A stretch of 37,388 nucleotides of DNA from a virus (lineage: Duplodnaviria; Caudoviricetes), in IMG/VR virus record IMGVR_UViG_3300032257_000532, positions 1-37,388 of that record; one strand, 5' to 3'. A program made the translations under genes and the position numbers. The notes beneath the pieces were generated by a model. That model did not search any database. It was given only the letters and a program-made list of their open reading frames with translations, and was not told the origin of the DNA. Shown in pieces: positions 152 to 37,339 of this stretch (position 1 is its first letter; the number at the start of each line of letters is the position of its first letter).

Positions 152-156
152 GAGAT
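152..156 (+). repeat. Left copy of 5-bp target-site duplication GAGAT
   Basis: Immediately precedes the terminal TG; identical to 37179-37183. Mu-type transposition makes 5-bp duplications. Confidence 0.9.
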
Positions 157-328
157 TGTGCGGGGACACTTGTTATTAGAGTAACCGGGATATGGCGGGA
201 TTAGGCGGAATTTAGTGGAACAGCCCCCAAAAACCGCCGTTTGTTGTTGTCTCGTTAAAAATGGGTCGGCGGGTGTTTTGTTTTTAGACTAATCGCCCAT
301 CAGGCCATTTCGGCACTTGAATTTAGAG
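157..328 (+). promoter_or_regulatory. Left end (attL) with transposase-binding repeats L1-L3
   Basis: CACTTGTTATTAGAG (167-181), GGAATTTAGTG (207-217), CACTTGAATTTAGAG (314-328). TTAGAGT sits at positions 20-26 from both termini. Confidence 0.75.
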
Positions 329-2274: not shown

Positions 2275-2750
2275 TGGCCCGCCGGAGTTTCCCAAAACCA
2301 CCGGCGAACACCATGCCCAGCCTTTTGGACTGGACACCGCCACGTGACGTCGTCGTGCGGTTTGAGGACGAGCGGGTACGCACCGCCACCCTGCGGGCGC
2401 AATTGTCGCGGGCCGTTTCAGAGACGCTCAGTGATGCCACTGCGTCCCGCCAAGATATTGCTGAAAAAATAAGCGCTTGGCTTGGCGAAAGTGTTTCCGC
2501 GCCGATGCTGGATAATTATGCCAGTGAGGCCAAAGAAGACCACGCGATCAGCTTGCCGCGCGCCATTGCCTTGATCCAGGCGACAGGTGATGTGCGGTTG
2601 TTGCAGTTGATTGCCGAAATGTTCGGTCACGCGGTGATCGAGGCGAAATACGTCAACGCCGTCAATGAGGCGATGGTCGCGGAACAGATCGAAAAGCTGG
2701 CAAAACAGAAAAAACAATACCGCCAAGGCTGGAAAGGCGGGGCGTCATGA
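2271..2750 (+). CDS. Conserved early protein preceding the transposase (HTH/CII-like)
   Basis: Overlap-coupled to both neighbours; SRQDIAEKISAWLGESVSAPMLDNYAS is HTH-like. Confidence 0.75.
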   Translation: MMARRSFPKPPANTMPSLLDWTPPRDVVVRFEDERVRTATLRAQLSRAVSETLSDATASRQDIAEKISAWLGESVSAPMLDNYASEAKEDHAISLPRAIALIQATGDVRLLQLIAEMFGHAVIEAKYVNAVNEAMVAEQIEKLAKQKKQYRQGWKGGAS

Positions 2751-4864
2751 GGGAATGGTTCACCGCTGCTGAACTGGCATCAATGGCGTTGAAATCCTTG
2801 CCCGGCACAGATCGTGGCATTCAATCGCTTGCCAAGCGAGAATGTTGGGCCGCGCGTAACAATGCCGCCGGTGGCGGGTTGACCCGCAAGCGGGCTGGTC
2901 GGGGTGGCGGGGTTGAGTATCACTACACATTGTTGCCAATGAAGGCCCAGGCGAAAATCGTTGCCGATCTGGCCCCGGTGAAAGTGGCTAAGGCCGCTGA
3001 GAAATCTGCCCTTGCGGCCCCCGATTTGTGGGCCTTTTACGAAGCATTGCCCGATGCGCGCAAAGACAAAGCCAAGCAAAAATTGCAGGTCATTGAAGAG
3101 GTCGATGGGCTGTATCGCGGCGGTGTGTTGAAAAATTTAGCAGTGCACACGGTGGCGCAAAGCCACGGCGTAACGCCGGCCACGGTGTTCAACTGGTACA
3201 GGCTGGTCGCGGGTGTGCCGCGGGCCGATTGGTTGCCCGCACTGGCCCCGCGTCATGCTGGCCGCACCAAGACGGCACCATGCACACCGGAAGCTTGGGA
3301 GGTTCTTAAATCCGATTGGCTGCGGGCCGAGCGACCAACATTTGAAAGTTGTTATCGCCGTTTGCAACGTGCGGCGGATGCCCAAGGGTGGAGCGTCCCC
3401 TCATCGCGCGCATTGGAGCGGCGCATGGAGCGTGAGATTGCCGCGCCGGTGCGGGTGTTGGCGCGCAAAGGTGTGGATGCGCTCAAGGCGATGTATCCGG
3501 CGCAAGAGCGGGACCGGTCGATTTTTCATGCGTTAGAAGCGGTCAACGCCGATGGCCACAAGTGGGACGTCTGGGTGCAATGGCCGGATGAAGACAAGCC
3601 AATCCGCCCGATGATGGTCGCGATCCAAGATTTGTTTTCCGGTATGTTTTTGGGCTGGCGGTTCGATAAATCGGAGAACAAAGAGGCCGTCCGCCTTGCC
3701 ATCGGTGACGTTGTTGAGACCTATGGCATCCCCGACCACATCTGGCTGGACAACGGGCGCGGCTTTGCTTCCAAGTGGCTGACGGGCGGCATCGCCAATC
3801 GGTTTCGTTTCAAAATCAAAGAAGAGGAACCGGTCGGCATTCTCACCCAGTTGGGCGTCGAGGTGCATTGGACGTTACCTTATAGCGGCCAATCAAAGCC
3901 CATTGAAAGGGCCTTTAGAGATTTCTGTGACGACATCGCAAAACACCCCGCGTTTGCCGGTGCATGGACGGGCAACACCCCGCTGAACAAGCCTGAAAAT
4001 TATGCCTCCAAGGCGGTGCCGCTGGACGATTTTGTGCGCATCGTCAATGAAGAGATCCAGCACCACAACGACCGCGTCGGACGTCTCGCCCCCATTTGCC
4101 GGGGCCGATCATTCACGCAGACGTTCAAAGAATCTTATGAGCAAGCCCCGATTAAAAAAGCCACCGAAGAGCAAAAACGTTTGTGGCTGTTGGCCGCCGA
4201 AGGTGTCACCTGCGCCCGGCGCGATGGGGCCATAAATTTGATGGGCAACCGGTTTTGGGGCGATTTTTTGCATGCCCATATGGGCCAGAAATTGGTGGTG
4301 CGTTTTGATCCTGATCGTCTGCACGCGGGGCTGCACGTCTACCGCTTAGACGGTTCCTACATCGGCTATGCCGAAGTGGTTGATGCCGCTGGTTTCAACA
4401 ATGTGGCCGCCGCCCGCGATCATAACCGCACCCGGAAGGCCTTCCAGAAAAATGCCAAGGTGCTGCTCGAACAGCACCGCACGCTCACCGGTGAAGAGAT
4501 CGCCGCGACATTGCCCACCCCGGCCAACATGCCGCCGTTGGAAAGCAAAGTCGTGCAAATGGCGGGCATCAAAGACCCTTTGATGACGCGCCCAGAACCA
4601 AAAACAACCGCCCTCAATGACCGCCAAGAACTCGCCCTTGAGCGCGTGGTTGAGCGGTTATCGGACCATCGCCCCGCCGAGCCTGAAGACACACCGGAGA
4701 CGCGGTACGCGCACGCACGGGCGCTTGATGCGGCGCTTGGCGACGGTGACGTGGTGAGCCTTGAAGATCGCCAGTGGTTACAAAGTTATCAGGAGACGTC
4801 TGAATACCGCACCGGTCGCCGCATGGAGAAAAGTTTTGGGAGCCGGTCGGACATCGCCGGATAA
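2747..4864 (+). CDS. Mu-like DDE transposase (MuA)
   Basis: N-terminal Mu HTH (EWFTAAELA...LPGT); catalytic motifs NADGH, LDNGRGF, SKPIERAF; C-terminal VRFDP domain. Confidence 0.95.
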   Translation: MREWFTAAELASMALKSLPGTDRGIQSLAKRECWAARNNAAGGGLTRKRAGRGGGVEYHYTLLPMKAQAKIVADLAPVKVAKAAEKSALAAPDLWAFYEALPDARKDKAKQKLQVIEEVDGLYRGGVLKNLAVHTVAQSHGVTPATVFNWYRLVAGVPRADWLPALAPRHAGRTKTAPCTPEAWEVLKSDWLRAERPTFESCYRRLQRAADAQGWSVPSSRALERRMEREIAAPVRVLARKGVDALKAMYPAQERDRSIFHALEAVNADGHKWDVWVQWPDEDKPIRPMMVAIQDLFSGMFLGWRFDKSENKEAVRLAIGDVVETYGIPDHIWLDNGRGFASKWLTGGIANRFRFKIKEEEPVGILTQLGVEVHWTLPYSGQSKPIERAFRDFCDDIAKHPAFAGAWTGNTPLNKPENYASKAVPLDDFVRIVNEEIQHHNDRVGRLAPICRGRSFTQTFKESYEQAPIKKATEEQKRLWLLAAEGVTCARRDGAINLMGNRFWGDFLHAHMGQKLVVRFDPDRLHAGLHVYRLDGSYIGYAEVVDAAGFNNVAAARDHNRTRKAFQKNAKVLLEQHRTLTGEEIAATLPTPANMPPLESKVVQMAGIKDPLMTRPEPKTTALNDRQELALERVVERLSDHRPAEPEDTPETRYAHARALDAALGDGDVVSLEDRQWLQSYQETSEYRTGRRMEKSFGSRSDIAG

Positions 4865-8514: not shown

Positions 8515-8699
8515 ACATCACCGATTTTCAATTCAGCATTTTACATGGTGTCGATGGTCAAGCGCAATTATCGCTGCATCACGGTGGCGATGTTTACCAG
8601 ATGGATTTGGACAACGCACAGCGTCAATCGTTGGGCCTGAATTTGCTGGACGCAACCCATGCCGATCCCGTTTCCGACGATGAAACTGGGGAAGCCTGA
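8511..8699 (+). CDS. Small hypothetical protein
   Basis: MNITDFQF...; coupled to flanking genes. Confidence 0.6.
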   Translation: MNITDFQFSILHGVDGQAQLSLHHGGDVYQMDLDNAQRQSLGLNLLDATHADPVSDDETGEA

Positions 8700-9367
8700 T
8701 GCCCTATCTGCGTGATCAACAACTCGAAGAGTTTCAAGATATTCGCCCGGCTGGCGGCGCACGGGTGTTGTTGATCGATCCGCCGTGGAGTTTTGAGGCT
8801 TATTCAGAAAAGGGGCACTTCAAGGGGGCGTCTGCGCAGTACGCCACCATGTCGATGGATGAGATCAAGAAAATGCCAATCGGCCATTTGGCGGCAAATG
8901 ACGCGGTGGTTTTTTTGTGGAGCACTTGGCCGCTGATGCCGCATTGGAACGACGTCATCACCGCATGGGGATTTGAGTTCAAAAGCCTTGCTTGGGAATG
9001 GATCAAGTTCAATCCCGACACCGGGAAATATGCCTTTGGCCCCGGCTACGGCACCCGCAAAAATTTGGAGCCGTGCTTGATGGCGACCCGCGGCAAACCG
9101 AAAATGCGCCCGCCCATAGATATGCCGTTGCTTGGCGCGGGACTGCCCCAAGGCGTGCGCTCGGTGCGAGACTTTGTTGAGGCCATGCCACTGGATTGCA
9201 TTCGCCAGCCACTCGACGGCCATTCACGCAAACCAGACGAGCAGTACACCCGCATCCAAACCATGTTCGAAGGCCCATACGTGGAGCTTTTCGCGCGCCA
9301 GCGTTACCCCGGCTGGATCAGTTGGGGCTTTGAGGTCGATAAATTTGAAGTGAGGGCCGCGCAATGA
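8699..9367 (+). CDS. MT-A70 family adenine methyltransferase
   Basis: DPPW catalytic motif, Y.TMS.DEIK..P, FLW, HSRKP, ELFAR, GW.SWG. Confidence 0.93.
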   Translation: MPYLRDQQLEEFQDIRPAGGARVLLIDPPWSFEAYSEKGHFKGASAQYATMSMDEIKKMPIGHLAANDAVVFLWSTWPLMPHWNDVITAWGFEFKSLAWEWIKFNPDTGKYAFGPGYGTRKNLEPCLMATRGKPKMRPPIDMPLLGAGLPQGVRSVRDFVEAMPLDCIRQPLDGHSRKPDEQYTRIQTMFEGPYVELFARQRYPGWISWGFEVDKFEVRAAQ

Positions 9368-34274: not shown

Positions 34275-34907
34275 ATGCGCTACGCAACTGTTGAAAACGA
34301 TGCCGTCGTTGGTGCCCCCCATGCCAAACCGGCAAAAATTGAAATCAGCCCTGGGGTGATCGTTGGCGCGGGACACTGGCCCGATGCTGAGTTGGCCAAA
34401 TATGGTGAATATCCGATTTCGTCAACATTCGATCCCGCCATCGAGTATGAGACGGGCTACACGTTTGACGCCGCAACCGGACAGGTCGTGGCGAGCGTTG
34501 CGGCGATTGCGGTGGCGGAAAAGATTGCTCCCGCTTTAATGGCCGTTGACGCCGCCGCCGAACGGTCGCGCCTGGCCTACATCACGCCCGGCAACGGCCA
34601 GGCCATGAGCTACCGCGAAAAGGCAGCCCAAGCGATGGATTGTCTGGCCAATTACACCGCCGCGACGCCCCCGGCCAGCGGCGTTTATGTGTTGCTCGAT
34701 TCCGAGGTGGGCATTATGGCCAATGCTGACGGCACCATCACCGCCAATGCCTATGAGGTCGCCGTGGTGGTTGATGCCACCCGCACCGCCTGGTTGGCCA
34801 TCGAAGCCGTCATCAACCGCACCCGCGTCCAAGCCAAGGCCGACATCAAAGCCGCAACAACGGCGGCGGAAGTCGAGGCTATTTTGGCGGCGATTGTGTG
34901 GACATGA
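34275..34907 (+). CDS. Tail fibre assembly-like protein
   Basis: AAGGAG RBS; YITPG.GQAMSY.EK..QA and AKADIKAA.T..EV.AI..I.W motifs. Confidence 0.7.
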   Translation: MRYATVENDAVVGAPHAKPAKIEISPGVIVGAGHWPDAELAKYGEYPISSTFDPAIEYETGYTFDAATGQVVASVAAIAVAEKIAPALMAVDAAAERSRLAYITPGNGQAMSYREKAAQAMDCLANYTAATPPASGVYVLLDSEVGIMANADGTITANAYEVAVVVDATRTAWLAIEAVINRTRVQAKADIKAATTAAEVEAILAAIVWT

Positions 34908-35449
34908 TGGAAAAAGGCGCTGTTTTGTCAGACTGTGGTCAGTACCGCTACGCTTTGTGGCGGAGCTGGGACAAATCCAAGCCGCGTCTCGTGTTTATCA
35001 TGCTCAACCCGTCAACGGCAGACGCGGAGACCGACGACGCCACGATCCGCGTGTGCATTGGCCGCGCCAAACGCATGGGTTTTGGCGGAATCCGCGTACT
35101 AAACCTGTTTGCTTATCGCGCCACAGACCCGCGTGAGTTACACCAGATTGATGATCCCGTTGGCCCTAAGAATTGGCGTTACCTTGGACAGTTATGCGGA
35201 TGCGTGGCAGATGGCGAGGTGACGATCGCGGCCTGGGGTAACGATGGTCAACTCATGGGCCACCATCGCGAACGCTGGCGCGAAGCCCTTGAAATCATCT
35301 GTTATGACATGGGCACGCCGCTGTTCTGCCTCGGCTTGACCCAACACGGCCAACCCAAACACCCGCTGCGAATCCCCTACGCCATAGAGCCGACACTATG
35401 GATGGACCGGGACCGGTGGCTAAAATCAACTTCCCCAACCGGCCAATAG
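34904..35449 (+). CDS. DUF1643 family protein
   Basis: SDCGQYRY.LWRSW, FIMLNPSTAD...DD.TI, NLFAYRATDP, AAWG, PKHPL. Confidence 0.9.
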   Translation: MMEKGAVLSDCGQYRYALWRSWDKSKPRLVFIMLNPSTADAETDDATIRVCIGRAKRMGFGGIRVLNLFAYRATDPRELHQIDDPVGPKNWRYLGQLCGCVADGEVTIAAWGNDGQLMGHHRERWREALEIICYDMGTPLFCLGLTQHGQPKHPLRIPYAIEPTLWMDRDRWLKSTSPTGQ

Positions 35450-35580: not shown

Positions 35581-36402
35581 ATGAAAGCTATCGCTCCGAC
35601 CAATCCCGTAGCACCTTACCAAGGCGGCAAGCGCAACCTCGCCAAGACCCTGATTCCGATCATCGACACCACCCCGCACACGGCCTACCGCGAGGTGTTT
35701 ATGGGCATGGGGGGCATCTTTTTGCGCCGCACCCGTATTCCCACTAACGAAGCCATCAACGACGCCTCCCAAGACGTCGCCAACCTGTTTCGCATCCTGC
35801 GCGAACACTTTCCCCAATTCATGGATGTGCTGCGCTTTCAACTTACCACACGCGCCGATTTTGATCGCTTGATGAAGGTCGACCCCGACACCCTGACCGA
35901 TCTGCAACGTGCGGCGCGATTCCTCTATTTGCAACGCACCGCGTTTGGCGGCAAGGTCGCCAAACGTACCTTTGGCGTGGCACCAGAACGGCCCGCAAGA
36001 TTTAACCTAATGCGTTTGGAACAAGATCTGGCCGACGTTCATGAACGGCTAGCGGGGGTGGTGATCGAATGTTTGGATTTCCGCGATTTCATTACCCGTT
36101 ACGACCGCAAGAACGCGCTGTTCTATCTCGACCCGCCCTACTGGAATTGTGAAGGCGACTACGGAAAAGAGCTGTTCAAACGCGAAGATTTCACCGATTT
36201 AGCAGCCCTTTTAAAGGGCCTCAAAGGCCGCTTTATCCTGTCTTTAAACGATGTTCCCGAGGTGCGCGACCTGTTTGCCTGGGCCGATATTCAGGCCGTG
36301 GAAACGACCTACAGCGTGGGGGGTGGGGGTAAGTCGAAAAAAGCGGGCGAGGTGATTGTCACCGGGGGACAGCGTGGAGCTGAAAAAGTCAGTGGTATAT
36401 AA
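35581..36402 (+). CDS. Dam-like (D12 class) DNA adenine methyltransferase at the mom position
   Basis: PYQGGKRNLA, Y.EVF.G.GG, AARFLYL, YLDPPY. Confidence 0.93.
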   Translation: MKAIAPTNPVAPYQGGKRNLAKTLIPIIDTTPHTAYREVFMGMGGIFLRRTRIPTNEAINDASQDVANLFRILREHFPQFMDVLRFQLTTRADFDRLMKVDPDTLTDLQRAARFLYLQRTAFGGKVAKRTFGVAPERPARFNLMRLEQDLADVHERLAGVVIECLDFRDFITRYDRKNALFYLDPPYWNCEGDYGKELFKREDFTDLAALLKGLKGRFILSLNDVPEVRDLFAWADIQAVETTYSVGGGGKSKKAGEVIVTGGQRGAEKVSGI

Positions 36403-36468
36403 TATCTTGGGCTTAGAAACCCTCTATAGGGATCAGGCACACTGGGTCAAAAGTGGCAATGGGGGACT

Positions 36469-37086
36469 ATGATGCCGATGGATGAAATTAAACAAGCCCG
36501 TGAGGCCCTTGAAGAAGCCCGGGAACGGTACACACAAGCTGTTTTGGCGCTGATGAAGGCGAATGAAGAACAGAGTGTGGAGCGCCGAACAGACGTCTAC
36601 AGAATTAATAAAGATAAATCCAACCAACAAACACAGGATAAGCACCAACTAATTGCCGATGCGCGTCTCACCATCCTGGAGGCGATAGAGCGGTATATGA
36701 ATGATAATGGTGTAGGTGTCAGAAACGCGGTGGAATCGGTTGCAAAAGGCTACCCTGGAAAGACACTTTTAGGGATTCCAAAGCAGGTTTATGGTGTTGT
36801 CTCACCGATGACGGAGACGACGCTCTGGAACTGGAGAAAGGCCTTCGGTGAGCACGGTCGCGAAGGCTTGCTTCCTCAACACAAGGGGCGGACGGCTTCA
36901 TACATATCTGCCCATCCCGAAATAGCCGCTTTCATTGAAAAAACGCTCGTCGAAAATACGGACATAACAGGGGTAAAATTACATGAAAAAATTGCTGTTG
37001 AAGCAGGAAAGCATGGCATTAAACCACCAAGTTTGAAGACGTGCACACGAATGATCTTGAAATGGCGTTCAAATGGACAGTTATAA
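36469..37086 (+). CDS. Stand-alone transposase end-binding-like HTH protein without catalytic domain
   Basis: GGGGG RBS; aligns by eye with the Ibeta-Igamma region of this phage's MuA. Confidence 0.7.
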   Translation: MMPMDEIKQAREALEEARERYTQAVLALMKANEEQSVERRTDVYRINKDKSNQQTQDKHQLIADARLTILEAIERYMNDNGVGVRNAVESVAKGYPGKTLLGIPKQVYGVVSPMTETTLWNWRKAFGEHGREGLLPQHKGRTASYISAHPEIAAFIEKTLVENTDITGVKLHEKIAVEAGKHGIKPPSLKTCTRMILKWRSNGQL

Positions 37087-37100
37087 GTAAGAATAAGGGC

Positions 37101-37178
37101 CTTAAATTCGCTTTTGAGGCCCTGCTTCCTGCTAAAAATTCAAGCTGCGGGGACTCTAAATTCCACCGACCCGCTACA
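37101..37178 (-). promoter_or_regulatory. Right end (attR) with transposase-binding repeats R1-R3
   Basis: CTCTAAATTCCAC (37154-37166), CTAAAAATTCAAG (37132-37144; 22-bp spacing) and CTTAAATTCGC (37101-37111) are inverted relative to the left-end motifs. Confidence 0.75.
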
Positions 37179-37183
37179 GAGAT
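37179..37183 (+). repeat. Right copy of 5-bp target-site duplication GAGAT
   Basis: Immediately follows the terminal CA at 37177-37178. Confidence 0.9.
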
Positions 37184-37217
37184 GGGCAATCCTAAAGCGA
37201 CCTATTTGCTACCTGAC

Positions 37218-37254
37218 AAATAAAAACGGCCTAGCCATTTCTGGCTAAGCCGTT
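37218..37254 (-). terminator. Rho-independent terminator of the tRNA
   Basis: Minus strand AACGGCTTAGCCA-GAAA-TGGCTAGGCCGTT-TTTATTT. Confidence 0.8.
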
Positions 37255-37262
37255 GATTTTAT

Positions 37263-37339
<77 letters not shown>

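Follow-up and report, generated by a model that had tools for sequence, protein, structure and literature searches.

The last gene of a complete Mu-like prophage encodes a stand-alone version of the DNA-binding module by which Mu-type transposases recognize the phage ends, lacking the catalytic core; the gene is real and under selection, and its product, whose function is putative, belongs to a known kind of regulator as a variant that the open literature surveyed does not describe. The prophage is contained in the window, i.e., the entire 37,388-nucleotide stretch of DNA analyzed here, which is a single contig, and extends from TG at position 157 to CA at position 37178, next to a host tRNA-Met (37263-37339) that lies past its right end. 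The gene of interest, hereafter the end-binder gene, and its setting comprise the following features.

152..156, plus strand: target-site duplication GAGAT, left copy (sequence, end mapping)
2747..4864, plus strand: resident full-length MuA transposase, own type, with the NADGH core (gene annotation)
35581..36402, plus strand: D12-class DNA adenine methyltransferase gene (dam), directly upstream of the end-binder gene
36461..36465, plus strand: ribosome-binding-site-like GGGGG (sequence)
36469..37086, plus strand: stand-alone transposase end-binding-domain gene, 205 aa, the last prophage gene
37179..37183, plus strand: target-site duplication GAGAT, right copy, 5 bp (end mapping)

The sequence-only reading had described this last gene as visibly AT-richer and provided with its own ribosome-binding site; the higher AT content was confirmed, and a sequence resembling a ribosome-binding site is present. 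Its GC content and GC3 are 0.47 each, compared with a GC content of 0.53-0.62 in 15 other rightward genes measured; the cI gene is AT-rich too. The second ATG at 36472 is the likelier start by its best fit to GGGGG, and the database form of the protein has 204 aa. The stop codon precedes position 37101 by 14 bp and the terminal CA by 92 bp. The gene, stop codon included, is identical letter for letter in contigs of three runs, possibly corresponding to source samples. Prediction of sigma-70 promoters upstream of the gene called none; a TATAAT is present at 36398-36403. Other genes of the prophage encode a ParB-like protein (1402-2274, ahead of the transposase), an MT-A70 methyltransferase (8699-9367) and a DUF1643 protein (34898-35449).

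The end-binder consists of a new helix, an I-beta domain, a linker and an I-gamma domain, and nothing more, as deduced from its matches to PHROG 310 and from fold comparisons.

36475..36636, plus strand: N-terminal long helix (residues 3-56), heptad-like in residues 3-36, to which full-length transposases give no match
36637..36873, plus strand: I-beta-like domain (residues 57-135), including an insertion (residues 95-113) common to the other transposase lineage described below
36874..36915, plus strand: I-beta/I-gamma linker with a PxxxGRT motif, like that of own-type MuA
36916..37077, plus strand: I-gamma-like three-helix domain, ending in a conserved PSxRTxQR helix

The PHROG 310 profile (Mu transposase) matches residues 19-201 over profile positions 69-244 of 696 with an E value of 2.5e-15, and the pairwise match to the resident MuA is weak (20% identity, E 0.003). 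All five sequence blocks formerly paired with the resident MuA are present and colinear with it, at 3/13, 6/12, 4/11, 6/10, and 5/18 identities. The AlphaFold model (pLDDT 85, pTM 0.49) contains a single helix at residues 3-80, which takes the place of the Mu helix-turn-helix (HTH) domain as had been supposed, followed by two helical domains. Transposase domains were among the best matches in the structural comparisons, with modest scores (no Foldseek E value at or below 0.001, Z about 6). In Foldseek, the Mu transpososome and TnsB account for the top five rows obtained with the model (E 0.02-0.09). The I-beta-only model gave no significant match in Foldseek; compared with 48,161 chains, it matched five at Z>=5, four of which are transposase DNA-binding domains, namely TnsB (6.1), MuA (5.9, rmsd 2.5 over 61 residues), TnpE (5.4), and MuA I-beta (5.2). 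Residues 146-205 align in VIA to the MuA I-gamma structure 2EZH (Z 5.7, rmsd 2.4), a score with which many homeodomains tie, and the Atlas comparison with a Mu-type transposase cluster gave a TM of 0.71 over 145 residues. A wide fold search with the whole model was swamped by coiled coils, and a PDB sequence search found nothing significant.

The remaining parts of MuA are absent. The stop codon follows I-gamma in all seven aligned family members, which extends the earlier observation that the protein ends ahead of a DDE core; domain III, which contacts MuB and ClpX, is missing from a protein that ends at residue 205; and the I-alpha enhancer-binding domain is lacking, an N-terminal profile giving no match below E 0.3 outside the family. 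With this profile search, the idea that the N-terminal helix is a still recognizable relic of the linker between I-alpha and I-beta was rejected; with the whole protein, matches in some transposases start as early as profile positions 11-29. Residues 3-36 carry 80-100% hydrophobic a/d positions in five of seven members, as counted in the best of seven registers with no null model; the homodimer prediction (score 0.01) speaks neither for nor against dimerization.

A full HMMER scan, the only search in which the family surfaced, returned 33 hits. Six homologues of 199-217 aa are 24-42% identical to the end-binder over most of their length and all end just past the PSxRTxQR helix, and two further short proteins (P0009 and P0011) have no long helix, giving eight short homologues in total; the other hits are mostly transposases, either full-length or truncated. 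The members have preserved both recognition helices as well as the linker, and the DNA-binding part is basic. In the I-beta recognition helix, the positions that face the DNA differ between members, thus its specificity may have drifted. At 24-42% identity, seven frames are open with the same boundaries, while simulated neutral evolution left 6 of 5000 frames open at a divergence of 0.5 and none of 5000 at 1.0. For the three main-family members with available DNA, pS was 0.67-0.77 and pN 0.36-0.43 in the three pairs, with synonymous sites near saturation; these values, obtained for the selection check proposed from the sequence, indicate that the gene is maintained under purifying selection.

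Other searches added little to this family. Word-index protein searches returned only the query itself near that length and nothing longer, and an alignment search of proteins returned already-known members only. Among GenBank phages, four records match in full-length RC1/RS1 transposases and two other matches are weak and unrelated, and P0005 as a query matched nothing among GenBank phages and plasmids. None of the seven members matches the anti-phage defence profiles of PADLOC 2.0 (library from 2023), and NCBIfam gave weak IS630/IS481 matches only. Further Atlas clusters of 130-190 aa with similar features may represent IS fragments or additional stand-alone families. Two large proteins, P0019 (3215 aa) and P0032 (1265 aa), are matched by the I-beta segment in seven stretches each.

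The transposases related to the end-binder fall into two lineages that occur on similar phage backbones: the own type, to which the resident MuA belongs (NADGH core), and the other type (mostly DSTPAD core). Judged by sequence comparison, the end-binder branched off long ago instead of being copied recently from the resident MuA gene, and most of it resembles the second lineage. The family profile (A2) scores the resident MuA at 18 bits, own-type MuAs at 18-28 bits and the other lineage at 27-86 bits, a gap that is biased because similarity was the criterion by which the other-type proteins had been chosen. An insertion of about 15 aa is shared by all six core members and 27/27 other-lineage proteins and is found in none of the five own-type proteins, and for each of the six members the best own-type MuA ranks only 22nd-27th of 32. 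The parts of the protein differ in this respect: the I-beta recognition region and I-gamma score nearer the other type and the linker is own-like, its motif P/DxxxGR[TS] occurring in six of nine short proteins, 5/5 own-type MuAs, and 0/27 other-lineage proteins. In a 41-row tree, from which five duplicates, three truncated proteins of short length, and a single locus had been omitted, the query and five homologues form a six-member clade (96/94), and the own-type MuA stands apart on a long branch (99/99); an AU test that joined the six members with own-type MuA did not reject this arrangement (p 0.28), and a quick tree of 59 rows weakly favored a grouping of own-type MuA and eight of the short proteins (support 81, with a long-branch warning). 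Thus, of the proposed domesticated transposase fragment, the maintained stand-alone I-beta/I-gamma protein stands, and its recent derivation from the phage's own MuA is not supported by the profile scores and the insertion. Phages of both lineages (L018, L031-L037, L156) encode cI, ner, a cII-like protein, and a MuB 38-48% identical to that of the window, and have similar end sites and 5-bp duplications. The existence of two distant lineages on similar backbones and ends suggests transposase swapping. The label 'B3-like' was considered for the other lineage and rejected: the duplications in G202, G329, and G069 are 5 bp long, and those made by B3 are described as 6 bp (PMC8705779).

An end-binder-type gene is the last phage gene in all four loci with available DNA (the window and three of the eight short homologues), which bears on the earlier question of whether homologues sit at the ends of other Mu-like prophages. 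The distance from gene to prophage end is 92 bp in the window, 96 bp in G001, and 107 bp in G069, the three loci with a visible end. In G001, the right end resembles that of the window, its flank TTCGC is the same as at the left end of a prophage whose MuA is 69% identical to the resident one, and the genome also carries a prophage of the other transposase lineage. In G002, tail genes and a decayed dam precede the gene, which is the last one of a Mu-like record that stops at its stop codon; this dam (L001 9330-9560) is reduced to fragments and the adjacent end-binder gene is intact. The G069 gene (L022 1393-2106), which abuts and follows dam, is a variant without the long helix and with a repeated I-gamma-like C-terminal tail; by its flank GATCC it is assigned to a prophage whose transposase is of the other type, and it possibly had an independent origin. 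In G003, which has a 72% identical MuA and the same ends, the slot holds four unrelated ORFs and no end-binder gene. Since such a close relative lacks it, the gene is accessory and not needed, and the terminal slot is a place of variable cargo.

The end-binder gene is rare. Two of the 401 genomes in the order sample carry such a gene, one of them being the center of the sample. A class sample of 401 genomes contained 21 with matches, one of them a broken frame (G751) and none a further stand-alone gene, and family samples of 21 and 7 genomes yielded no further such gene. None of 80 viral loci around dam relatives carries one, although tail genes (gp48/J) are visible in only five of these loci and many are cut close to dam. 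A viral contig search with the query or with an alignment of P0008/P0006/P0007 found no context, and of two metagenome scans, one gave no match and the other returned only the window itself.

The putative targets of the end-binder were mapped at both prophage termini.

157..181, plus strand: left terminus with site L1 (end mapping)
273..289, plus strand: left-end site L2, weaker match, predicted (matrix)
312..328, plus strand: left-end site L3, predicted (matrix)
37096..37123, plus strand: hairpin after the end-binder stop codon (R3 of the sequence-only reading), likely a terminator (folding z -4.2)
37132..37148, minus strand: right-end site R2, predicted transposase site (matrix)
37154..37178, minus strand: right terminus with site R1 (end mapping)

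The terminal sites of both transposase lineages have a common consensus near GACA(C/G)nTnnnnTT(A/G)GA, thus an end-binder of either ancestry could recognize both kinds of ends and compete broadly. With a matrix built from six other-lineage ends that are confirmed by duplications, the sites of the window rank 10th (L1), 11th (L3), 89th (R1), 184th (L2), and 271st (R2) among 74,744 positions, and column-shuffled matrices equalled L1 in 1/300 and L3 in 0/300 cases. A nine-site matrix, for which five ends were picked by eye, has its top window matches at the prophage ends. The proposed end repeat R3 does start 14 bp from the stop codon; however, in the tested register it ranks 12,916th of 74,744 with the other-lineage matrix, and it is mainly a terminator-like hairpin, which also carries a U-tract in G001 (z -7.0) and G003 (z -6.5) and is without a clear equivalent in G069. 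That it lies so near the stop codon is therefore as expected for a terminator. A 10-bp-periodic (G/C)GGA array follows L1 (187-209 in the window) in 12/12 left ends of both types, five of which were picked by eye, and is a candidate packaging signal or site for another protein.

We propose, with a probability of about 0.4, that the end-binder is a catalytically empty competitor that occupies the transposase sites at phage ends, most likely barring related Mu-like phages in the lysogen. The protein would be made in the lysogen, where it would occupy these sites and compete with the transposase, so that related or heteroimmune Mu-like phages would be kept from integrating or replicating; once the prophage is induced, it would be out-titrated by the MuA that the phage itself encodes. 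This proposal is favored because the gene is dispensable, moron-like cargo and the sites are common to both lineages, and a truncated P-element transposase is described as binding element DNA and repressing (PMC7776569). Against it, the structural scores are modest, the variable I-beta recognition helix may have changed in specificity, a binder of the common consensus would hinder its own phage too, the right-end sites R1 and R2 of the window rank low with the other-lineage matrix, and G001 holds the end-binder gene alongside an other-lineage prophage; moreover, co-orientation with the late genes and the abutting dam in G069 fit late rather than lysogenic expression. It is possible, if doubtful, that the end-binding module became a broad superinfection-exclusion factor acting at the integration step, which would blanket the end sites of both lineages and stop Mu-like phages that escape repressor immunity. 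Such a factor may have arisen more than once: own-type prophages have a coiled-coil form, and an other-type prophage has one in which an I-gamma-like tail is duplicated.

A close rival, somewhat less probable, is that of a self-regulator that binds the ends of its own phage and either damps spontaneous transposition in the lysogen or ends transposition late for packaging. The position of the gene behind the late genes, in their orientation, and its abutting dam in G069 would suit this role, as would the own-type linker motif and the weak grouping with own-type MuA in the larger quick tree; however, G003 with its closely related MuA and identical ends does without the gene, and pairing of the Mu prophage ends is reported to require neither MuA nor the right end (PMC3820752). 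Slightly less probable, and likewise a close rival, is a repurposed transcription factor, whose paired HTH module would recognize a phage or host promoter instead of transposon ends. The tandem HTH fold is like that of paired, POU, and homeodomain proteins, the I-beta recognition helix is variable, and the new N-terminal helix could oligomerize. The Mu repressor and MuA share the I-alpha domain, which is a precedent for such reuse. On the other side, the I-gamma helix and the linker remain transposase-like, no candidate operator was seen in the window, and the top matrix matches there are the ends.

The sequence-only reading had also considered Mu-type cis immunity, to which a role in genome immunity, with clearance of MuB from the vicinity of the ends, may be added, and this is highly improbable by the known route, because cis immunity operates via MuA-MuB contact (PMC7350765) and the end-binder is devoid of the C-terminal domain III, in which III-beta is the part that touches MuB (PMC3362531). 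Finally, a non-functional remnant of a second transposase is the least probable explanation and is largely refuted: broken or truncated transposases do occur among the hits (G751; P0024, P0031) and the gene is rare, but its same-length homologues share boundaries and open frames with synonymous sites near saturation, there is no trace of I-alpha, and no core remnant lies in the mere 92-107 bp or so from stop codon to prophage end.

Regulation by parts of a transposase that lack catalytic activity is known from IS and P elements; for instance, InsA of IS1 is a non-catalytic N-terminal transposase piece that regulates transposition. The fold, linker, and domain order of the end-binder are those of the I-beta/I-gamma module in MuA (PDB 4FCY, 2EZK/2EZL, 2EZH; PHROG 310) and TnsB (8AA5, 7PIK), whereas it is encoded by a separate gene without I-alpha, the DDE core, or domain III, and differs from the resident MuA type by its N-terminal helix and insertion. 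Close parallels in build are the KP protein (207 aa) and the 66-kDa repressors of the Drosophila P element, which likewise keep the DNA-binding part without the catalytic core, KP being also similar in size and in having a helical segment with heptads, only heptad-like in the end-binder, that might dimerize; these repressors are described as products of the transposase gene of the P element itself, formed by deletion or splicing (PMC7776569). In contrast, the end-binder is an old, separately encoded phage paralogue with putative repression; it thus shares with the repressors a DNA-binding domain without a core, not their derivation from a transposase gene of the same element, and is not a transposase. 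OrfA of IS911 and the related IS3-family regulators are non-catalytic N-terminal pieces with an HTH and a leucine zipper, described as regulating transposition and, for OrfA, as sharing a reading frame with the transposase via frameshifting (PMC2909936), whereas the end-binder gene lies 31 kb from MuA and is no close copy of it. The gene also resembles the accessory, moron-like genes of Mu-like phages in being AT-rich, patchily distributed, and located in a variable slot; unlike those presented in the available text of PMC4378225, it derives from a core transposition protein. In the text surveyed from the open literature, including PMC8987985, PMC4378225, PMC8705779, and PMC5977238, no such separate conserved gene of a transposable phage is described.

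If the end-binder binds the ends, it would be a natural inhibitor of Mu-type transposition, and, if the proposal is true, a possible phage-versus-phage defence that acts on DNA integration rather than on entry or transcription. This raises the question of whether end-site competition controls lysogeny and superinfection among Mu-like phages, and suggests a possible use as an off-switch for Mu/TnsB-type transposition tools.

The mapped ends also point to possible tRNA-adjacent targeting by Mu-like phages, a subject on which the literature searched held nothing. Four of the six prophages with both ends mapped by duplications sit 44-104 bp beyond the 3' end of a tRNA (Met, Ser, Phe, Ala). The stretches between tRNA and prophage end are as follows.

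37178-37263 of the window
2213-2318 of L022
950-995 of L019
12163-12262 of L144

In the other two mapped prophages (G003 and G329), look-alikes of tRNA 3' fragments, which are not called by ARAGORN, can be recognized by eye near the right end.
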